DNA from: a virus
Lineage: Duplodnaviria > Heunggongvirae > Uroviricota > Caudoviricetes
Virus record (IMG/VR): IMGVR_UViG_2703718843_000010
DNA length: 22,143 nucleotides
Direction: 5' to 3' (one strand)
This document shows, piece after piece, positions 2,939 through 12,785 of this stretch; within the stretch, counting starts at the first letter, position 1; every line of letters begins with the position of its first letter. The notes under the pieces were generated by a model. That model saw nothing but the letters and a program-made list of their open reading frames with translations, was not told the origin of the DNA and made no database searches. Both the position numbers and the translations under genes were made by a program.

Positions 2939-3151
2939 ATGACCAGACGTGAACAATATAGTTTCATTTTGCATGTTCTTTTACCTGCTATCGAAAATGA
3001 AGGGTTAACCATTAAAACCCGCCGTGATGGTGAGTTAACCCTTTCTGCCAGTGGGTCTGTAGCAACCAATTTTATAAGCAATCTGCGCCAGCACTGCATT
3101 GAAGAATTGCAGCGCCCTTCTATTCCAGCTTCCCATTACGGAGTCCTATAA
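2939..3151 (+). CDS. Hypothetical small protein (70 aa) immediately upstream of dam
   Basis: ATG at 2939 with GGAGG at 8-nt spacing; its stop (3149-3151) is one base before the dam ATG. Confidence 0.5.
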   Translation: MTRREQYSFILHVLLPAIENEGLTIKTRRDGELTLSASGSVATNFISNLRQHCIEELQRPSIPASHYGVL

Positions 3152-3152
3152 A

Positions 3153-4124
3153 ATGATCCGCCCGTTCATCAAATGGGCAGGGGGTAAAACCCGTGTCCTC
3201 CCTGACCTGCTGCCGCATCTTCCTAAAGTCGACTGCCTGATCGAACCATTCGTAGGCGGTGCATCGGTATTTCTGGCGACTGAATACCGCCGCTATGTGC
3301 TGGCTGATATCAACCCAGATCTTATTAACCTGTATCGGGAAGTCACCCGTTACCCGGACTTAGTGATCGATGCGGCCCGCGAACTGTTCAACAGTAAGAA
3401 CAACCCGCAGGGATACAACGAAGTCCGCGCCGCGTTCAATAAGCAGGTGGGTACGGTAAAAAGCGGTGGGTTGCGTTATGGCGCTGAAATGGCGTGCATT
3501 ATGCGCGCTGCTCAATTCCTGTATCTGAATCGCCACGGTTATAACGGCTTATGCCGATACAGCCGGAAGACCGGCTTTAACGTGCCGTTTGGCAAGTATA
3601 AGAGCGTCTACTTTCCTGAAAATGAAATCCGCCTGTTTGCCGAAAAGGCCAACGATACAAAGGCAATATTTCTTTGCGCGCCGTTCCAGCGTTCTCTACA
3701 AGTCGTCACGGGTGGCGATGTTCTTGTTTACTGCGATCCGCCTTACCTGCCTGAAAGCAAAACAGCCGATTTTACCCAATACCACACCGAACCATTCACG
3801 GAAGACAACCACCGCCAGTTAGTCCAGGCACTGCTGGAAGTTAACCGTAAGCATGGCGTGAAGGTCGTCATTTCCAACAGCGACACCGAAGCCACCCGCG
3901 TGATTTATCAGCCCTTCAAGATGCACGAAATCAGCGTGCAACGTTCCGTCAGCACTGACAAAGACAACCGCCAGAAGGCCAAAGAAGTGATCGGCGTGCT
4001 GCCTGTCTGCGACTGCTGCGGGCGTTACGGCGGCGGTTGCCCTGATTGTGGCGCCGTGATGGGTGATGCGACTTACAACGCGATGGTTGCGGCGGGCACG
4101 TTTGACGATCTGGAGGCTTTTTAA
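3153..4124 (+). CDS. dam: DNA adenine methyltransferase, Dam family (D12 class, likely GATC), with a C-terminal cysteine-cluster extension
   Basis: N-terminal FIKWAGGK, SAM-binding EPFVGGASVFL and catalytic DPPY, with overall collinearity to E. coli Dam as remembered. Extra tail VCDCCGRYGGGCPDCG. ATG at 3153 with GGAG upstream. Confidence 0.9.
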   Translation: MIRPFIKWAGGKTRVLPDLLPHLPKVDCLIEPFVGGASVFLATEYRRYVLADINPDLINLYREVTRYPDLVIDAARELFNSKNNPQGYNEVRAAFNKQVGTVKSGGLRYGAEMACIMRAAQFLYLNRHGYNGLCRYSRKTGFNVPFGKYKSVYFPENEIRLFAEKANDTKAIFLCAPFQRSLQVVTGGDVLVYCDPPYLPESKTADFTQYHTEPFTEDNHRQLVQALLEVNRKHGVKVVISNSDTEATRVIYQPFKMHEISVQRSVSTDKDNRQKAKEVIGVLPVCDCCGRYGGGCPDCGAVMGDATYNAMVAAGTFDDLEAF

Positions 4125-4444
4125 TGGCAAAAATCTATATCGCTGGCCCGATGAGCGGTTTGCCTGGATTCAATCGGCAGGCTTTTAACCGTGCAGCCGG
4201 GCACGTAGTGCGACGCGGAAACGTTGCCCTTAATCCGGCGATTTTGCCGGATGGATTAGAGCAGGCGGAATACATGGATATTTGCTTCGCCATGTTGCGT
4301 TGTGCTGACGGGATCTTCTTGCTGGATGGCTGGCAGCAGTCTGCCGGAGCTAAGGCAGAGCACGCGCTTGCTGAAAAGCTGGGTTTAGAAATTCAGTACC
4401 AAGTAATCGATCGGTGTAGCCGAAAGGCGGAGGGGCAGCAGTGA
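4124..4444 (+). CDS. DUF4406-like protein (nucleoside 2-deoxyribosyltransferase-like fold)
   Basis: 106 aa beginning MAKIYIAGPMSG...NPAILP, the hallmark N-terminus of the DUF4406 family. ATG overlaps the dam stop (TAATG). Confidence 0.75.
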   Translation: MAKIYIAGPMSGLPGFNRQAFNRAAGHVVRRGNVALNPAILPDGLEQAEYMDICFAMLRCADGIFLLDGWQQSAGAKAEHALAEKLGLEIQYQVIDRCSRKAEGQQ

Positions 4445-5355
4445 CCGCCTACTACAACGAAATCGACCCCTTCGCCGCGCAATACCTGCGCAACCTCATT
4501 GATGCCGGGCTTATCGCTTCCGGTGTTGTCGATACTCGTTCCGTTGAGGATGTAACCCCAAATGACCTTAAAGGATTCTCACAAGTCCACCTGTTTGCAG
4601 GTTTTGGAGGCTGGCCCCGTGCTTTGCGCGTCGCAGGATGGCCGGACGACCGCCCAGTATGGACAGCAAGTTGCCCATGCCAACCTTTCAGCCAGGCAGG
4701 CGAAGGAAAACAATTTGATGATGAGCGGCACCTATGGCCCGCCGTTCATTGGCTTGCAGGCCAGCAACGCCCTGTCGTTATATTTGGCGAACAGTCTTCA
4801 AGCAAAGATGCAGAAGTCTGGATCGACCTTGTACAAACTGACATGGAAAGTTTGGGCTATGCCTTCGGGGCGTCGGCGTTTCCGTCTGCGGGCGTCGGTG
4901 CGCCGCACATCCGGGAGCGTACTTACTGGCTGGCCGACTCCAACCGCGAGCAATACGAAGAACGCTTATCAGGATGCCGAGAAGGTGATCGCCAGGAAGC
5001 TGGCTGGTCGGCAGTCGAACTTACAGGGCTTTGCTTGTCTTGCGGGTTGGCCCACCCCTGCGGCGAGGGATGGAAAGGGCGGGTATCAGGGAGGAAGGAT
5101 GCGGCACGGGAAGCTGTCAACGGATACGCTGGATGTGACAGCGCAGATAGCAGGCCCGGCCCGGTTAACGGATTCTGGGGATCTGCTGACTGGCTCCTTT
5201 GCAGAGATGGAAAGTGGAGGCCAGTTAAACCCGGCCTTAAGCCTCTGGTTGATGGGGTTCCCTCCAGAGTGGGAAAACTACGCGCCAGCGGAAACGCCGT
5301 AAATATCTATGCAGCCGCAACTTTCTTAAAAGCCTACATGGAGATCGCGCAATGA
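4441..5355 (+). CDS. DNA cytosine-5 methyltransferase (phage-type); a second long overlapping frame is described in findings
   Basis: GTG start overlapping the upstream stop (GTGA). Motif I FAGFGG, motif IV PCQPFSQAG, GEQ-type motif VI region, motif VIII GAPHIRERTYWLA, motif X GNAVN...FLKAY. Stop overlaps the gene A ATG. Confidence 0.8.
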   Translation: MTAYYNEIDPFAAQYLRNLIDAGLIASGVVDTRSVEDVTPNDLKGFSQVHLFAGFGGWPRALRVAGWPDDRPVWTASCPCQPFSQAGEGKQFDDERHLWPAVHWLAGQQRPVVIFGEQSSSKDAEVWIDLVQTDMESLGYAFGASAFPSAGVGAPHIRERTYWLADSNREQYEERLSGCREGDRQEAGWSAVELTGLCLSCGLAHPCGEGWKGRVSGRKDAAREAVNGYAGCDSADSRPGPVNGFWGSADWLLCRDGKWRPVKPGLKPLVDGVPSRVGKLRASGNAVNIYAAATFLKAYMEIAQ

Positions 5356-7757
5356 CCACGGCAACCCGTGGCCGTCGCGCCCCTTCTCCACCTCCACCGT
5401 ATCCGGGTAGCACTGACAATGCTATCCCTTACGCTTATGGCGGGAACAAACCATACCAGCCTATTGGCGTTGATGTAGCGCCGGGGCTGGATGGTTTCGA
5501 CTATCTCACGCCGGACGGCACGCGTAAGCATATTGCGTTCAGTGAACTGGTAGCGGAAGACGAAAAGCCGGAGCGCAGCAAGCTGCTGCGTCGCCGCCTG
5601 GCTTCTCTTCCGCAGTATATCCGCCGCCACTTTGCCGCGAAGCTGGATGCACTGGACGCGAAAGACCGCAAAGCGGCAGATCACTGGCTGGTTAATACAT
5701 TTGAGCGCCACGTATTAACGCGTATTGATAGCGTGAACAGTGTTTACCAGCCTGACACTGTGATGCCCGGCATTCTGCTGCCAATCCGCGATCAGCTTTT
5801 CCGTATGCTCTGGGCAGGGAAGAAAGAGTTAAAAAGACTGGCTTATACGCTTGCCGATATCTTTACGAGCGAGTTTATACGCGAGTCCGATCACCAGTTG
5901 GCACGCACCGGAGATCCTGAGTTCGCGGCGCTTTCTGGCTATGGCCGTATTGCGTCGCTGGCGGTGCATCTGAAAACGCCGATCCCTGGCTGGACGGCGT
6001 ATTGCAATGAAGAACTGGAAGCGGAGGACGCGTTACGCGCGGTTCTTCGCCTTGAGTCACCGCAGTGGTGGTTAAACCGCCTGCGCCGTATCCATGCCCG
6101 GTGGCGTGAGCATTTGATGATCGCAGCGGGATACGTCCAGAAAAAATCTTCCCCATACAGTAGCGCCCCGTGCCTTACGGAGTGGTTGGCCCAGAAAAAG
6201 GCTAACCGTGAATACCTTAAGGCTATGGAACTGGAAGACCAGGACACGGGCGAACGCATTTCACTGATCGATAAAGTCGCCGGTAGTGTTGCCAATCCGG
6301 CCAACCGTCGCCGCGAACTCATGACGAGAATGCGCGGATTTGAAGATCTGGCGAAGCTGGAAGGGCTGGCCGGTGACTTCTACACGCTAACAGCACCTTC
6401 CCGTTACCACTCCATGCAGCATAACGGGCGCCGCAATAATAAATACTGTGGCGCGTCGCCGCGCGAGACGCAGCAATATCTTTGCAAAGTCTGGGCGAGA
6501 ACCCGCGCAGCGTGGAAGAGAAAAGGGATCCGCGTCTTTGGTTTCCGCGTGGTCGAACCGCACCACGATGCAACGCCACACTGGCATTTACTTCTTTTTA
6601 TGCGCCCGGAATGCGTCGAGCAGGCGCGCGAAATCTTCCGTAAATATGCCCTGAAAGAAGACGGCAACGAACCGGGAGCGCAGGAAAACCGCTTTCAGGT
6701 TGTGCCGATCGACGATGCCCACGGCAGCGCAACCGGCTACATAGCGAAATACATTTCGAAGAATATCGACGGCTTCGCGCTGGATGGTGAGAAGGACGAC
6801 GAAACCGGGGAAGACCTGAAAGAAATGTCACTCCGCGTTAGCGCGTGGGCATCGCGCTGGGCTATTCGTCAGTTTCAGCAGATCGGCGGTGCGCCGGTCA
6901 CGGTATATCGCGAACTTCGCCGCCTGGGCGATCGCGAACTGGTGTTACACCCTGAACTGGAAACCGCCCGGCAGGCCGCTAACGGTGGCGAATGGGATAA
7001 CTACGTATTAGCCCAGGGTGGACCGTTGGTTGAGCGCGATAAGCTGCGCATCCGTCTGAATTATGAAACCACTGAAAACGGCAACGCCTACGGCGATAAC
7101 GTCCAGCGAATCACTGGTATTTACTGCCCGATTACGGGCAATGACTCTTTGATCTTCACCCGCACCACTCAATACAAAATCGTGCCGAAGCGCCAGAGCG
7201 CTGACGGTGTGGCCGTTGACGTTGGTTTTTCAGGCGGCAACGCCGCCCCTCGGAGTTCTGTCAATAACTGTACGCGGGATCCCGCGGCAGGTGCTGACGG
7301 TGTAGAACATGCCGCCAGCGAAGCTACAGGGCAGTCAGAAATGACTGAGCCAGCTGAGGGCGTGACGGTGAATTTTGATGCGCTTTCACGGCAGGAAAAG
7401 CGAGAATTGGCGCAGCGGCTCAGTGCCGATGTGCGAAGTAAGCGTAAAAAACGGCCACCGGATAGGGAAGACAGGGCCGGGCTGTCCGTGAAAGAGCAGC
7501 AGATCAGTGAACTGCTGGCGCTGCGTGGGATTGATGCCAGCGCCGGAATGGTCAGATCGATGATGGCCGGTGCGTCAGTGGCGTGCGGCGATCTTGTTAT
7601 GACCGTGCAGGACGGGCGGCTGGTGTCGCGCAATCGCGCCGCGTCGGGGATAGGTAAATTAGCAACTGAAAAAATGGCAGTTAAGAAAAAATCTGATGAA
7701 CTTCTCAATCGCTGGAAAGTGGCTGTAAAAATTAACAGGGGTAAGTTGACAAATTGA
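5352..7757 (+). CDS. A: Replication initiation protein A (rolling-circle HUH endonuclease), P2 gpA-like
   Basis: 801 aa with HUH-type motif EPHHDATPHWHLLLF and active-site tyrosine motif GYIAKYISKNIDG; collinear with remembered P2 A. Confidence 0.95.
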   Translation: MTTATRGRRAPSPPPPYPGSTDNAIPYAYGGNKPYQPIGVDVAPGLDGFDYLTPDGTRKHIAFSELVAEDEKPERSKLLRRRLASLPQYIRRHFAAKLDALDAKDRKAADHWLVNTFERHVLTRIDSVNSVYQPDTVMPGILLPIRDQLFRMLWAGKKELKRLAYTLADIFTSEFIRESDHQLARTGDPEFAALSGYGRIASLAVHLKTPIPGWTAYCNEELEAEDALRAVLRLESPQWWLNRLRRIHARWREHLMIAAGYVQKKSSPYSSAPCLTEWLAQKKANREYLKAMELEDQDTGERISLIDKVAGSVANPANRRRELMTRMRGFEDLAKLEGLAGDFYTLTAPSRYHSMQHNGRRNNKYCGASPRETQQYLCKVWARTRAAWKRKGIRVFGFRVVEPHHDATPHWHLLLFMRPECVEQAREIFRKYALKEDGNEPGAQENRFQVVPIDDAHGSATGYIAKYISKNIDGFALDGEKDDETGEDLKEMSLRVSAWASRWAIRQFQQIGGAPVTVYRELRRLGDRELVLHPELETARQAANGGEWDNYVLAQGGPLVERDKLRIRLNYETTENGNAYGDNVQRITGIYCPITGNDSLIFTRTTQYKIVPKRQSADGVAVDVGFSGGNAAPRSSVNNCTRDPAAGADGVEHAASEATGQSEMTEPAEGVTVNFDALSRQEKRELAQRLSADVRSKRKKRPPDREDRAGLSVKEQQISELLALRGIDASAGMVRSMMAGASVACGDLVMTVQDGRLVSRNRAASGIGKLATEKMAVKKKSDELLNRWKVAVKINRGKLTN
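7233..7287. other. Candidate replication origin (nick-site region) inside gene A
   Basis: Hairpin GGCGG-CAACG-CCGCC, then CCTCGGAGTTCTGTCAATAACTG, then perfect palindrome CGCGGGATCCCGCG. Encodes the AAPRSSVNNC linker that I remember as the ori-containing part of P2 A. Confidence 0.35.
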
Positions 7758-7774
7758 AAAATCTGCACCATCAT
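7746..7774 (+). promoter_or_regulatory. Candidate promoter for the cargo cassette (TTGACA, 17-nt spacer, CATCAT)
   Basis: Perfect -35 hexamer at 7746-7751 and a weak -10 at 7769-7774; a second TTGACA...TGCAC module follows 34 bp downstream. Confidence 0.3.
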
Positions 7775-7820
7775 TCTGGTTGACAAAGTTTGATATTTGC
7801 ACTCATGGAGATTTGGATTG

Positions 7821-8414
7821 ATGTCTAAGCAGCCTTTACCTTGGGACTTTCACCCACAATTAACTGAAGAGCGTTTAACAATTATTGCTAAAGAATTGTT
7901 AAGGGTCTTAAATGACACATATGCTCAACTTTCGACCACCTTGGATAACAACTATACACGTTCTACTTGTACTTTTGGTCGTCAATGGCAGTTACTTATT
8001 GATTTATGTTTGAGTGGACAGTACGACTGGCTTCATCTCACCAACGCTGGTTTAGACATCACTTTTACGATCGATACAATTCCTGTTCGTTTCTTCACTG
8101 ATGATCCGGCCAATCCTAAAAAGGATGGTTTTTATCGTCGAAATCCTGCTGATCAGCTTTTTGCTCCTGAGGTGGACATTCCCGTTTTACATCGCTTTGT
8201 TGTTGAGAAACCCGAATTTGAGGGTGAAGGCGCTAAAGTTCATTTCATTGGTTATAACGCTTTGGACGAAGAAGTATCTAAGTGGACGTACAACGATGAA
8301 CCAACAACAGCATTGTTGCACTCTACGGATGATACACCGCCAGAGTCTGTTAGAATTGAACTTGATGACATTCGCCCTTCTCGTCCCGAAAAGGAAGAAA
8401 AAGAGAGCGATTGA
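7821..8414 (+). CDS. Hypothetical protein (197 aa), first gene of the hotspot cassette; candidate effector or toxin
   Basis: ATG at 7821 with GGAG upstream. No motif I recognise; acidic, low-complexity C-terminal tail (PSRPEKEEKESD). AT-richer than the flanking phage genes. Confidence 0.6.
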   Translation: MSKQPLPWDFHPQLTEERLTIIAKELLRVLNDTYAQLSTTLDNNYTRSTCTFGRQWQLLIDLCLSGQYDWLHLTNAGLDITFTIDTIPVRFFTDDPANPKKDGFYRRNPADQLFAPEVDIPVLHRFVVEKPEFEGEGAKVHFIGYNALDEEVSKWTYNDEPTTALLHSTDDTPPESVRIELDDIRPSRPEKEEKESD

Positions 8415-8437
8415 GATTAATGAGTAGAAGGTGAAAA

Positions 8438-9550
8438 GTGTTTAACGGTTCTAATTTAAGATTGGCTCGTCTGTATCACGAGCTATCACTGGAGCAAGTA
8501 GCTGAGCGGGTCGATAAGACCCGCCAGTATATTCAGCGGCTGGAATCCGGCACGGCTGTTCCAACACCCGAGCTTGCGAATAAATTAGCTGCCGTCTTGC
8601 TGGTGATGCCTCATTTTTTTGAAGAGCAATGGCAGTCTCCTGTAAATGAAGAGATCGTTCACTTCCGCAAGCGTAGTTCTACGAGAGTCGCCACAAAAAT
8701 GGCGACTCTCGCCAAAGCTGAGCTGTATCGACGACTTATTGAAATTTTTGAAGAGTATCTGGAGTTACCGCAAGTAAGATTTCCTGAACTGAAGGTGGAT
8801 ACTCAAGAGGATATCGAAAAAGCAGCGGAGAAGTGCCGGACTGATTGGGGGCTAGGTTTTGGGCCGATCGATAACATGACTCGTCTTGCTGAAAAGCTGG
8901 GAGCGTTTGTCACTTCTTTTGATTCTGTTTCTGACGATGTTGATGCTCTTTCTGTTCCTTTGAGCCGCCCATTTATCGTAAGGAATACAGCTAAAAAGTC
9001 ACCCTGCCGTCAGCGGTTTGATATCGCTCACGAGGTTGCACATTTAATTTTACATGAGGGTGTCTCTACTGGAGACAGGGCTACTGAGTCGCAGGCTAAC
9101 CGCTTCGCGTCTGCATTGCTTTTGCCAAGAACAGCTATGGCGAAATATTTTCCACGTCCGATTGGTGGTCGAATCGACTGGCAAGGTCTTAGCCAGTTTA
9201 AATTAACGTGGAAAGTGAGTAAGGCCGCGATCATTTATAGAGCACATCAACTTGGGCTTTTAACTGACGCTCAATACAAAACCGCCTTTTTTGGTCTCAA
9301 GCGAAAGGGGGAGGCTATTGATGAGAAAGAAGATTATTTGATCCCTTGTGAGAAGCCAGAACTATTCAGTAAAGCAATGAAATGCCTGTTAAATGATTTG
9401 TCCGTGGATATTGAAACATTAGCCCAGCGTTTGAGCATAACCCCTACGATGCTCGCAGAACTTGCTAATGATGACACTTTGGTTTCTGCGTCATGTGTGA
9501 ACTCTGAGAATGTAATTTCAATGTTTGCGTATCGGATGAAAACTGCTTAA
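8438..9550 (+). CDS. XRE-family HTH fused to ImmA/IrrE-type (M78, COG2856) zinc metallopeptidase, with an extra C-terminal region
   Basis: GTG start with AAGGTG at 5-nt spacing. N-terminal HTH LRLARLYHELSLEQVAERVDKTRQYIQRLESG; HExxH motif HEVAH encoded at 9029-9043 within the ImmA-like core; about 150 further residues after the core. Confidence 0.85.
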   Translation: MFNGSNLRLARLYHELSLEQVAERVDKTRQYIQRLESGTAVPTPELANKLAAVLLVMPHFFEEQWQSPVNEEIVHFRKRSSTRVATKMATLAKAELYRRLIEIFEEYLELPQVRFPELKVDTQEDIEKAAEKCRTDWGLGFGPIDNMTRLAEKLGAFVTSFDSVSDDVDALSVPLSRPFIVRNTAKKSPCRQRFDIAHEVAHLILHEGVSTGDRATESQANRFASALLLPRTAMAKYFPRPIGGRIDWQGLSQFKLTWKVSKAAIIYRAHQLGLLTDAQYKTAFFGLKRKGEAIDEKEDYLIPCEKPELFSKAMKCLLNDLSVDIETLAQRLSITPTMLAELANDDTLVSASCVNSENVISMFAYRMKTA

Positions 9551-9564
9551 AAATCGCTGTGATG

Positions 9565-9593
9565 AAAAATCCCGCTTCGGCGGGATTTTTTTT
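9565..9593. terminator. Rho-independent terminator, potentially bidirectional
   Basis: Stem AATCCCGC / GCGGGATT with TTCG loop followed by eight T; a five-A run precedes the stem. Confidence 0.8.
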
Positions 9594-9996
9594 AGAAGAT
9601 GTCTGCACAATAGTGCACAAATTTGCACAATTTTTTTGATGCTGTTTATGCCCTTTCCGCCCTGTGGCGGCGCGGTCTGCCCCCGGATCGGCAAGTGCAC
9701 AAAAAACGAAGCAAATGTCGCGCGCAGGTGACGGGGGAACAGCCCACGCGACAGGGGTCAGGGAGGGGGTGCCATTAAATGCCATTCTTCGGCCTTTTCC
9801 GCCTTCTTAGCGCGCTTTCTCGCTTCTGGATATGTGCGGGGTCGATTGCAGTTTGCACCTGCCAGAATGGTGCTCATTCGCTCTGAGTGAGGGGGGTAAA
9901 TGCTGCGCTGAGTGGTGTTCAGGTGGTGGCCGGTCATGCGGGGATTGAAAATTACTGAAGGAGAGCCGCCGCAGGATGTGCGGCGGGTGGGTCGGG
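9594..9996. other. cos / packaging region (inferred from synteny; exact cohesive-end position not determined)
   Basis: About 400-bp non-coding interval between the cargo terminator and the 3' end of portal gene Q, where P2 has cos. Contains G-rich tracts and the TGCACAA repeats. Confidence 0.4.
9604..9630. repeat. Three TGCACAA direct repeats at exact 10-bp spacing (9604, 9614, 9624); fourth copy at 9696-9702
   Basis: Read directly from the sequence. Confidence 0.8.
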
Positions 9997-11055
9997 TCAC
10001 TCGTCTTTGAGCAGAGCGTACGGATTAAAGCGGATCACTTCCTGGCCGAGCCAGTCATTGACGCCCTTCATGGCTTCCATCACAGGCAACATTTCGTTGA
10101 TAGCGAAGACACGCGCGGCCTTCTCAACATCACCGAGCGAGCCGTTGCCTTCCGGCATTGCGCCCATTAGCTGTGGCGGGATGCGGTGAGCGTCGCGCAG
10201 ATCGTTGCGCGTGGCTGCTTTGATGTTAAGAAACTCATCCTTTGCCGATATCTGGCTGAACGGCAACAGTTGCACGCCGTCTTTGCCGCCGCCCGGCGCG
10301 TGGATCAGCACGTTTTTGAAGGAGCCTTTCCCTCTGGCCTGTGACAGCGTCTTTTGCACCACCTTGATGCTTTCCTGATCCACCTTCTCCGAACCGACAT
10401 AGAGAATACATCCGGCGTGAGAGCCGTTGTCATAGTAGAGTTTGCGGAACCTGTCGGCAGAATGGGACAGGCTGGCGGACAACAGCGCCCCCATGTACTC
10501 CGGCATACCGTAGATTTCCTGATGAATGTCAGGGTTCATGATGTGGCAGACCTCGCCCGCCCTGAACTCGTATTCATCTTTCCACTGCCGGATAAACCAG
10601 TAGGTATCAAGATCGCTTCCCCGTCGCGTGTTCAGCGCCGGAACATGCTTAAGTTTTAGCGGCTCTCCCAGGCGATTAGACCGACGCTCAAGATAGGCAT
10701 TGCCGAAGACAAACCAGTCCAGCGCAAACGCAGAGAACGCCTGCCGCGAGAGTAACGGATGAGGGATATAGCACCCGGTCAGCACATTGCGTTTGAAGTA
10801 AAGCGCCGACTGATGCAGCGGGGACTGTGCGAACGCACGGGTTAACCCCTTCCAGTCTATTGGCGTTTCGTAGTACCGGCCGTTATCGACACAGCACATG
10901 CTGTCCAGCAGATCATAGCCGTCCGTTACCGAATATGGTCCGTCAAACGTGAAGGCGCTAAGCGCCGGATCGCTTCTGAGCGCGTCAGAGATATCAGGCT
11001 GACCGGCACTGCCGCTGCTGGCAGTGTGTTTGTTTTTGTATGTGCGCTTCTTCAT
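9997..11055 (-). CDS. Q: Portal protein, P2 gpQ-like
   Basis: 352-aa ORF adjacent to and co-oriented with the large terminase; start ATG overlaps the P stop (ATGA). Confidence 0.9.
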   Translation of the reverse strand: MKKRTYKNKHTASSGSAGQPDISDALRSDPALSAFTFDGPYSVTDGYDLLDSMCCVDNGRYYETPIDWKGLTRAFAQSPLHQSALYFKRNVLTGCYIPHPLLSRQAFSAFALDWFVFGNAYLERRSNRLGEPLKLKHVPALNTRRGSDLDTYWFIRQWKDEYEFRAGEVCHIMNPDIHQEIYGMPEYMGALLSASLSHSADRFRKLYYDNGSHAGCILYVGSEKVDQESIKVVQKTLSQARGKGSFKNVLIHAPGGGKDGVQLLPFSQISAKDEFLNIKAATRNDLRDAHRIPPQLMGAMPEGNGSLGDVEKAARVFAINEMLPVMEAMKGVNDWLGQEVIRFNPYALLKDE

Positions 11056-12785
11056 CAGAACTCCATAGCAAACCCGCCGCTGCCACTCTCCTGGCCCAGC
11101 GGTTCGTTAATAATGGCGAGCATATTCGCCCAGGCTAAATCCCCGTGGCTGACGCCGCGCGAGCGGTCAGTGTCATAGGTGATGAATCCGCCCGGCGTCT
11201 TTACCTTGCGAACAGAGTTAAAGGCGTTGATCAGGGCGCGCTCGCTGCGGTCATATTCCCATCGCCCGGCGCGGATCAGCTGTAGCATTTTCAGCACCAG
11301 GGCGCGCTTTGACGTCATTGACATGGTGTAGGGCATCGCCATCGGGAAAAACTTCTTCACTATCTGGTAAACGGCTTCACCATTACCGCCCGTCACGTCG
11401 ATGCCGACATGCTGAACGTTGTATTTGAAGGTGAAGTTTTCGATAACTTTCGCCTGCTCTTCAAATTCAAGGCCGCGCACCTGTTCCGTTTCCACCGTGC
11501 GGAATTTACCGCCTGGCACCAGTGGCGGAACCACGACGCAAATCGCGCCGCTGTCGCCGTTGCCGCTGCTGCCGTTGGCGTCATAACCTATCCACACCGG
11601 GCGGTTACCCATCGGCCTGGACGCAAAAGGTTTCCAGTCCGGCCATTCGTCGTAACCATCTGCCCCGCAGCCAATCAGGGCGTTAAGGTTGAAGGCTGAC
11701 TCGCCATCGCGCACGAACTCGCACATGTACAGGTTGCGGAATTCATCCTCACTGTTTTCATCCTGAATTTCTTCAAGGTCGGTATATTCCCAGCCGTGGT
11801 CTATCACGTCCTTCAGAGTGACAATCTGACGCCAGGTTTTATCCGGGCATAGCAGGCCGCTGTTCAGCGTTTTCCAGCCCACATCAAACGCTTTGCGCTG
11901 TGCCTTCGGGCGTTTCTCATTCCAGCGATCGCCTGTCCAGAAAGGGTAAGCCTCATGGGTTTCACCTGACGGCGTGGAAAAGTAGGTACGCGTCAGCCCT
12001 TTCAGCGTTGCCATTGCACCTGCAACCTTTCGCAGGTTGGTGAAGTTGCTGACCCAGAAGAATTCATCGAACTTCAGGTTGCCCGTATATGACTGTGCCG
12101 TCGCTGCGGACGTGCCGAGGAAATGAAGCTCTGCGCCGTTACTCAGTACGATTTTGTCGCCCCCCTTAAGCTCAACATCCACTTCTTCGGCCATCCTCTG
12201 AATGAATCCCCTGAACTGGTGCGCCTGACGGCGGGATGCTGACAGAAATATCTGGTTGCGTTGGTACGGGTATTTCACATCATCGCGCAGCGCATCCAAC
12301 AACGCCTCGCGTGCAAAGTACCAGGTTGCGCCAATCTGGCGGGACTTCAGTATCATGCGGTTTCGGTGGTGGCGTTGCTCATACCAGCCGCGTTGATGCC
12401 ACGAAAGCGAATCAAGTATTTTCTCCCGCAGCGCGACGATCTGTTCTTCGGTGAAGTGGTTTTTCAGCTTGCGCTTGCGTGGCTTTTTGCCCGCCCCAGC
12501 CCCTGCCGGTTGTCCGTCAGACAGTTTTTTCAGTTGCCGGGTCAGCAGATCAATCTCCTTAAAGTCTCCCCCGGTCTTGTCTTTCTTGTCCGTAAGCTGG
12601 ATGAGGCGGGCATCCATAGACTGGCTGACGCGCTGTACGGGCGGCGTTTCATCCCATTCATCGCGTTTCTTCCAGGCATAAATTGTGTTCTGATTAATCC
12701 CCATCAGGCGCGCGATCTCCGCTGGCGGGTAGCCCTGCCAGTAAAGTTGTTTTGCCCTCTGACGTACAAAAGCGTCCTGTATCAT
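11055..12785 (-). CDS. P: Terminase large (ATPase) subunit, P2 gpP-like
   Basis: 576 aa with Walker-A-like SRQIGATW and an N-terminal HTH-like segment; divergent from O as in P2. Confidence 0.9.
   Translation of the reverse strand: MIQDAFVRQRAKQLYWQGYPPAEIARLMGINQNTIYAWKKRDEWDETPPVQRVSQSMDARLIQLTDKKDKTGGDFKEIDLLTRQLKKLSDGQPAGAGAGKKPRKRKLKNHFTEEQIVALREKILDSLSWHQRGWYEQRHHRNRMILKSRQIGATWYFAREALLDALRDDVKYPYQRNQIFLSASRRQAHQFRGFIQRMAEEVDVELKGGDKIVLSNGAELHFLGTSAATAQSYTGNLKFDEFFWVSNFTNLRKVAGAMATLKGLTRTYFSTPSGETHEAYPFWTGDRWNEKRPKAQRKAFDVGWKTLNSGLLCPDKTWRQIVTLKDVIDHGWEYTDLEEIQDENSEDEFRNLYMCEFVRDGESAFNLNALIGCGADGYDEWPDWKPFASRPMGNRPVWIGYDANGSSGNGDSGAICVVVPPLVPGGKFRTVETEQVRGLEFEEQAKVIENFTFKYNVQHVGIDVTGGNGEAVYQIVKKFFPMAMPYTMSMTSKRALVLKMLQLIRAGRWEYDRSERALINAFNSVRKVKTPGGFITYDTDRSRGVSHGDLAWANMLAIINEPLGQESGSGGFAMEF

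Follow-up and report, generated by a model that had tools for sequence, protein, structure and literature searches.

The IMG/VR virus record IMGVR_UViG_2703718843_000010 (22,143 nucleotides (nt), referred to at its full length as the window) is a P2-like prophage, and the present analysis concerns a two-gene cargo cassette, rmrT-rmrA, located between its replication gene A and its portal gene Q. This interval is the A-Q, or tin/old, hotspot of P2-like phages. A first-pass annotation based on the sequence had described here two co-oriented genes with their own upstream TTGACA elements and a strong terminator, contained in an island richer in AT than both flanking phage genes, and each of these points was borne out. 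The features of the cassette and its flanks are as follows (+ and -, strand; aa, amino acids):

7745..9601, +: the whole cargo island of approximately 1.86 kb, comprising promoter/operators, rmrT, rmrA and terminator, delimited by composition and backbone homology.
7746..7774, +: putative operator/promoter unit 1, TTGACAAA-N10-TGCAC (7746-7768) followed by a candidate -10 element, CATCAT (7769-7774); promoter scan, repeat family and conservation.
7780..7802, +: putative operator unit 2, TTGACAAA-N10-TGCAC, 34 bp downstream of unit 1 and overlapping the likely transcription start region.
7821..8414, +: rmrT, toxin gene, 197 aa; PADLOC RmrT model PDLC03929 (E 7.5e-92) and PHROG 5786, with the start set by alignment.
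8438..9550, +: rmrA, antitoxin/regulator gene, 370 aa; PADLOC RmrA model PDLC03943 (E 2.8e-204), Pfam HTH_3 and Peptidase_M78, and an AlphaFold2 (AF2) model.
9564..9593 (hairpin 9564-9591), +: intrinsic terminator with a 12-bp stem, a UUCG loop and a U-run, predicted by folding.
5352..7757, +: replication gene A, P2-type, 801 aa, the left flank; PF05840 (Phage_GPA, E 1.8e-105), annotated by RefSeq as 'replication endonuclease' in a near-identical prophage.
9997..11055, -: portal gene Q, the right flank; PF04860 and the RefSeq annotation of the near-identical prophage.

Two co-oriented open reading frames on the + strand (7797/7821..8414 and 8438..9550) thus occupy the space between the PF05840 and PF04860 genes. 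The GC content of the island is 0.435, as compared with 0.563 for gene A and 0.557 for portal gene Q. A gap of only 23 nt separates the two cassette genes, which appear to be served by one promoter and one terminator. The terminator hairpin has a folding energy of -18.3 kcal/mol (z = -3.45), and none of 200 shuffled sequences was equally stable; it was found by folding and was overlooked by a simple consensus scanner.

The start of rmrT was placed at ATG 7821 instead of TTG 7797 because three observations agree: the corresponding Met opens all of the 37 aligned homologues, a GGAG lies 10 nt upstream, and RefSeq gives the same 197-aa product (WP_061357490). Residues 1-197 of RmrT align with positions 1-196 of the 198 in PDLC03929, and the protein also falls into phrog_5786, a group of unknown function. 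The earlier description of this gene as having no recognisable domain therefore holds for Pfam and NCBIfam, whose domain scans gave no match, and not for PADLOC and PHROG. A profile search of RmrT against the chains of the PDB yielded no sequence match at E values up to 10. The protein is predicted to be soluble and acidic, with an isoelectric point (pI) of 4.6 and no transmembrane segment. Its AF2 model (mean predicted local distance difference test (pLDDT) 77.5) consists of two long helices and then a beta-sheet, and its C-terminal tail, which begins at residue 161, is disordered. Conservation of 90% or more across 81 diverse members of the family is confined to P7, L19, D42 and P99, and the alignment of 37 homologues, including the window protein, places T46 in a conserved NYTR motif. 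Weak matches of the model to restriction-endonuclease-like folds were observed as well. A PD-(D/E)xK nuclease function was considered and not assigned, since the candidate catalytic residues (D79, E129 and K130) are conserved among close relatives only and not across the 81 members.

The second gene starts at GTG 8438 behind AAGGTGA, as it does in RefSeq. RmrA is covered by PDLC03943 over residues 1-369 of 370 and is a member of phrog_2439. It contains an HTH_3 helix-turn-helix (HTH) domain at residues 7-54 (E 4e-12) and a Peptidase_M78 domain at residues 151-269 (E 3e-18) with an intact HExxH motif (HEVAH, residues 198-202, nt 9029-9043), in agreement with the first-pass view of an XRE HTH fused to an ImmA/IrrE-type peptidase. 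H198, E199, H202, H206, E217 and an ANRF motif are invariant in 40 RmrA homologues; the linker holds an invariant HFR motif (75-77), and the C-terminal domain is helical. The AF2 model is of good quality (pLDDT 88, predicted template modelling score (pTM) 0.85), and its peptidase part is closest in fold to CapP (7t5t, E 3e-4) and IrrE (3dti), while the HTH part resembles CapH, DdrO and SinR. Sequence comparison with PDB chains returned nothing at E values up to 0.01. Further matches were found to the PADLOC models capP (E 2e-18) and capH (E 3e-6), as well as to the NCBIfam 'spr1629 family repressor/antitoxin' model (E 5e-49, below the cut-off of that model). In addition, natural variants with a broken RmrA occur in E. 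coli ET650 and in CP122620.1 (L006:6605-7725), with 283 aa in one and 245 plus 118 aa in the other, and the toxin gene is of full length beside both.

RosmerTA was defined as a Zn-peptidase antitoxin combined with a toxin of unknown function (Millman et al. 2022), and the family consists of diverse toxins paired with RmrA. Both hallmarks are present at the locus: a single protein with an N-terminal XRE HTH and an M78 (ImmA/IrrE) Zn-peptidase with intact HExxH, and an adjoining, co-oriented small gene that matches an RmrT toxin model. RmrA of RosmerTA does have the HTH-M78 architecture that the first-pass annotation attributed to it. The cassette is thus, with high confidence, a RosmerTA-family type II toxin-antitoxin module of the PDLC03929/PDLC03943 subtype, carried as exchangeable cargo in the P2-like A-Q (tin/old) hotspot.

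It is also already catalogued, and is an ordinary system and not an undescribed one. Among public contigs, approximately 589 encode a protein identical to the 197-aa product and approximately 421 one identical to the 370-aa product; they come from Enterobacter, E. coli, Salmonella, Citrobacter and Klebsiella. Four complete E. coli genomes contain the cassette DNA at 99.6-100% identity. Moreover, WP_061357490 with a Peptidase_M78/HTH partner is listed in a supplementary table of P2-hotspot cargo (Rousset 2022). The suggestion that a hitherto unknown effector is coupled here to a protease-type switch fails accordingly, because both genes match an established system: the profile hidden Markov model searches that the first-pass annotation had proposed returned RosmerTA models at full length for both proteins, an outcome it had itself named as contradicting novelty.

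The toxin family was found to be widespread. A profile search of 1.84 billion representatives gave 438 clusters, nearly all of them stand-alone proteins of about 200 aa, and all 81 of the diverse members examined match PDLC03929 and essentially nothing else. The same order, a toxin gene followed by an HTH-M78 gene, occurs in E. coli lambdoid prophages (between replication genes and DUF968/RusA/Q), in the A-Q hotspots of Serratia P2-like prophages, in an Acinetobacter Tn7-like element beside a DUF499 anti-phage gene, and on a Cupriavidus plasmid. The pairing was present in 36 of 39 viral loci from IMG/VR; the other three lacked an antitoxin match, and two of these end at a contig edge. A search of the phage GenBank set gave no match to the cassette DNA and only one weak match at the protein level, and no Vibrio entry was seen among the named distant toxin-cluster representatives. 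In the lambdoid prophages (loci L002-L006 and L011-L014), the module stands directly after hokD, a type I toxin gene, and before DUF968/RusA/Q, a position that represents another cargo hotspot where toxin-antitoxin modules cluster.

The upstream region of the cassette has been maintained across this range. The TTGACA elements at 7746 and 7780/7781 each lie inside a direct repeat of 23 nt, TTGACAAA-N10-TGCAC; the window contains two occurrences of this pattern, compared with 0.05 expected by chance. In unit 1, TTGACA takes the position of a -35 element, separated by a 17-nt spacer from CATCAT at the -10 position (promoter scan score 10/12). A double operator of two GTTGACAAA-N10-TGCAC copies is kept upstream of the toxin gene in 34 non-redundant loci, with a start-to-start spacing of 34 bp in 29 of them, and persists at toxin identities as low as 28-35%, from Enterobacterales prophages to the Acinetobacter Tn7-like element and the Cupriavidus plasmid. 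CAnnAT is likewise conserved after unit 1 at 17 nt from TTGACA and could be the -10 element. A promoter composed of the unit 1 TTGACA and CAnnAT is plausible, and the repeats at 7746-7802 are probably binding sites for the HTH of RmrA.

Several relatives of the module have been studied in the laboratory. The closest is a pair in an E. coli E101 prophage, E101_02645 (WP_001179380.1) and E101_02644 (WP_000481765.1), which makes clpP essential (Rousset et al. 2021; bioRxiv 10.1101/2020.05.25.114553); transferred to K-12, the pair confers clpP essentiality, and the substitution T46S in the upstream protein suppresses it (bioRxiv 10.1101/2020.05.25.114553). In E. coli genomes, WP_000481765.1 is found directly downstream of a toxin variant, WP_001179382.1. 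The window RmrA is 75% identical to WP_000481765.1, and the window RmrT is 56% identical to WP_001179382.1. The E101 module and the window cassette share the toxin and antitoxin families, the double operator and T46; however, the E101 module resides in a lambdoid prophage, between replication genes and DUF968/RusA/Q, and not in the P2 A-Q hotspot. Across homologous pairs, the antitoxin is steadily more conserved than the toxin (75% vs 56%, 88% vs 63%), which is the reverse of the usual expectation for type II toxin-antitoxin systems.

A more distant relative is Vmi480/Vmi470 of the Vibrio mimicus genomic island MGIVmi1, to which the E101 pair is 33% and 42% identical, respectively (Rousset 2021). 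In E. coli, Vmi480 by itself kills the cell, an effect that Vmi470 counteracts, and no deletion of vmi470 on its own can be made (PMC4671572); vmi480 has also found use for counter-selection in pLP11 and pLP12 (Luo et al. 2015). As in the window, an upstream toxin without known domain is followed by a downstream HTH and Zn-peptidase antidote, but the pair lies on a mobilisable genomic island and not on a phage.

The validated RosmerTA of E. coli OLC-716 protects against phages, and its rmrA deletion could not be transformed (Millman et al. 2022). It resembles the window cassette in that its operon consists of two genes, the toxin gene leading and an XRE HTH plus M78 antitoxin following, the cassette here being borne on a prophage, but belongs to another subtype (RmrT PDLC03935 and RmrA PDLC03949). 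HTH-M78 antitoxins of the RosmerTA family are also found in the RipAB (Spr1630/Spr1629) pair of Streptococcus pneumoniae, where RipA targets the DnaN sliding clamp and RipB needs ClpX, and in RmrTA of Gordonia phage Kita, which protects against phages and whose toxin has transmembrane helices and depolarises membranes. Both of these toxins are unrelated to the window RmrT, which is soluble and lacks a transmembrane segment. In Pectobacteriaceae, clpX was found to be essential only in strains with RosmerTA, and rmrA is essential there (2025 preprint).

Other systems share individual features with the cassette. CapH/CapP of CBASS (cyclic-oligonucleotide-based anti-phage signalling systems), ImmR/ImmA of ICEBs1 and DdrO/IrrE of Deinococcus likewise pair a repressor of the XRE HTH type with an M78 metallopeptidase; however, in these systems a separate repressor and protease control a downstream operon, whereas the window encodes one fused chain and a toxin. 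The sole partner gene of rmrA is rmrT, with no CBASS, integrative and conjugative element (ICE) or repair regulon, and the likeness to CapH/CapP-type regulators is one of fold only. P2 tin and old have the A-Q position in common with the cassette and nothing else, and Pfam, PADLOC, PHROG and NCBIfam scans detected neither an OLD-type ATPase/TOPRIM domain nor a Tin-like match in either cassette protein. PD-lambda-2 includes an Xre-peptidase fusion too, but consists of three genes, encoding a HigB-like protein, a HigA-peptidase fusion and a P4 antitoxin-like protein (Vassallo et al. 2022), as against two in the cassette; Pfam and PADLOC showed no HigB/RelE match for gene 1, and no third gene precedes the terminator.

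Based on these comparisons, a working model may be proposed. As suggested by the conserved double operator, a single promoter, with its -35 element inside the first of the two GTTGACAAA-N10-TGCAC repeats, would drive both genes, and the XRE HTH of RmrA would most likely bind the repeats and autoregulate the operon. RmrT would act as a soluble growth-arresting toxin neutralised by the downstream RmrA, as shown for its homologues, and neutralisation may additionally depend on host ClpX/ClpP, a dependence demonstrated for the E101 pair and seen as a correlation in other RosmerTA systems. A phage-derived cue during infection might, by analogy with validated RosmerTA, CapH/CapP, ImmR/ImmA and DdrO/IrrE, break this neutralisation, either through the CapP/IrrE-like peptidase domain acting as sensor or switch, or through a loss of ClpX(P) capacity. 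The freed RmrT would then stop the cell before the phage cycle is completed, a form of abortive infection that could protect the lysogen population and hence the prophage.

A more specific proposal, which is tentative and rather unlikely, is that the PDLC03929 RmrT family represents a mechanistically new soluble toxin held neutral by RmrA together with ClpX(P), so that the module would guard ClpX/ClpP and a phage inhibiting or saturating the protease would free the toxin. The features behind this idea are the acidic nature of RmrT, its lack of a catalytic signature, its conserved arginines and the NYTR loop with the T46 suppressor site. If true, it would explain the essentiality of clpX or clpP in the presence of RosmerTA in E. 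coli, S. pneumoniae and Pectobacteriaceae. In E. coli, clpP and clpX are co-transcribed, and a polar effect on clpX is to be expected when clpP is targeted by CRISPR interference (CRISPRi). Because of this expected polarity, the roles of ClpX and ClpP in E. coli have so far been inseparable.

Several points weigh against the assignment of the cassette to RosmerTA and its reading as a defence module. The RmrA of OLC-716 is only 31% identical to that of the window, and the two toxins show no BLASTP similarity and an hhalign probability of 2%. A distant homology between the window RmrT and the OLC-716 RmrT was considered and ruled out by these comparisons and by the different PADLOC models. No report of phage protection by the PDLC03929/PDLC03943 subtype was found in the literature. 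The proposed binding of RmrA to the operators derives from conservation, i.e. phylogenetic footprinting, and the putative homology to Vmi480 from the published identity values of Rousset 2021 (33%/42%). Furthermore, the peptidase fusion is itself the toxic part in PD-lambda-2 (Vassallo et al. 2022), which is why roles may differ between Xre-peptidase modules.

Among the alternatives, the one that survives best is that the cassette is mainly an addiction or stabilisation module that kills cells losing the prophage and has no real anti-phage role. Such a role would agree with the essentiality of the antitoxin wherever the toxin is present (OLC-716, Vmi470 and Pectobacteriaceae), with the movement of the module on prophages, plasmids and Tn7-like elements, with the lack of literature on phage protection for the window subtype noted above, and with the plasmid-partition genes borne by about one quarter of P2 hotspots, which indicate that the hotspot is not for defence alone. 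On the other hand, two other RosmerTA systems (OLC-716 and Kita) do protect against phages, the Acinetobacter module adjoins the anti-phage DUF499 gene, and the P2 A-Q interval is strongly enriched in defence systems. Addiction and defence are also compatible with each other, and a pure addiction role is considered improbable.

Even less probable is that gene 2 is an ImmA/IrrE-type anti-repressor in the lysis-lysogeny or induction circuit of the prophage, with gene 1 as an accessory phage protein. M78 and XRE proteins do act as pairs in the control of ICEBs1 (ImmR/ImmA), of the Deinococcus response to damage (DdrO/IrrE) and of CBASS expression (CapH/CapP), and gene 2 comes nearest to CapP and IrrE in fold. 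However, the prophage has an integrase and a repressor/Cox region of its own (1-2201); the two-gene unit recurs, operators included, in lambdoid prophages, in a Tn7-like element and on plasmids, all of them unrelated backbones; close P2-like prophages hold quite different cargo at the same position; and homologues of the upstream gene are lethal toxins. Least probable of all is a new defence system built from an undescribed effector and a protease switch, since, although gene 1 lacks Pfam and NCBIfam matches and PDB sequence relatives and is unrelated to the validated OLC-716 RmrT, it belongs to the PDLC03929 family, an identical protein is present on about 589 contigs and in the Rousset 2022 table, its orthologues have already been studied as toxins, and RosmerTA by definition comprises diverse toxins with RmrA. 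The assignment to an exchangeable RosmerTA-family module is therefore preferred.

The exchange of this RosmerTA cassette can be followed in its flanks. A block from approximately 7152 to 9551, which takes in the cassette together with ~600 nt from the 3' end of gene A, is 100% identical to a prophage of E. coli XYEH3783, whereas both flanks are 92-97% identical. This pattern indicates that the cargo was exchanged by recent recombination, with the left crossover within the 3' end of gene A. The last codons of gene A overlap the first operator/promoter unit, and its final ~25 nt (GCTGTAAAAATTAACAGGGG) were seen to accompany the cassette even where the gpA match is only ~50% identical (locus L033). 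On the right, the island ends at about 9601 and P2-like cos-proximal backbone homology resumes at 9603; P2-like prophages that match from 9603 onward bear different cargo, for example ParM partition genes or DUF4760. Three TGCACAA repeats at 9606-9634, just past the terminator, resemble the right half of the operator. They were considered as extra operator half-sites and dropped; they are probably a backbone feature outside the cassette, because the same region (~78% conserved) is present in P2-like prophages with other cargo.

The remaining features annotated in the prophage, which extends over the whole window, are as follows:

1-981, -: integrase, at one end of the prophage; gene calls and the RefSeq annotation of the near-identical prophage.
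1-2201: repressor/Cox region, including the integrase.
3099-4124: Dam methylase.
4124-4444: DUF4406 protein, between the Dam methylase and gene A.
4441-5355: C-5 cytosine methylase-like protein, with a partial PF00145 match (E 8e-11).
11055-12785: terminase P, downstream of portal gene Q, with structural genes beyond.

The segment 4124-5355, containing the DUF4406 and C-5 cytosine methylase-like genes, has no counterpart in the otherwise close XYEH3783 prophage and may for this reason be a second variable cargo site.

The value of the cassette as a discovery is small, as a classifier of defence systems would be expected to call it RosmerTA and the same proteins are already included in public tables of P2-hotspot cargo. 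It nevertheless provides a worked example of the exchange of whole, self-regulated toxin-antitoxin defence cassettes among phage backbones at the P2 A-Q hotspot, a process confirmed by the 100%-identical block within flanks of 92-97% identity. For this widespread subtype, interest remains in phage protection, in the target of the soluble toxin and in the dependence of neutralisation on ClpX/ClpP, and the conserved double operator offers a concrete handle on the regulation of the cassette.

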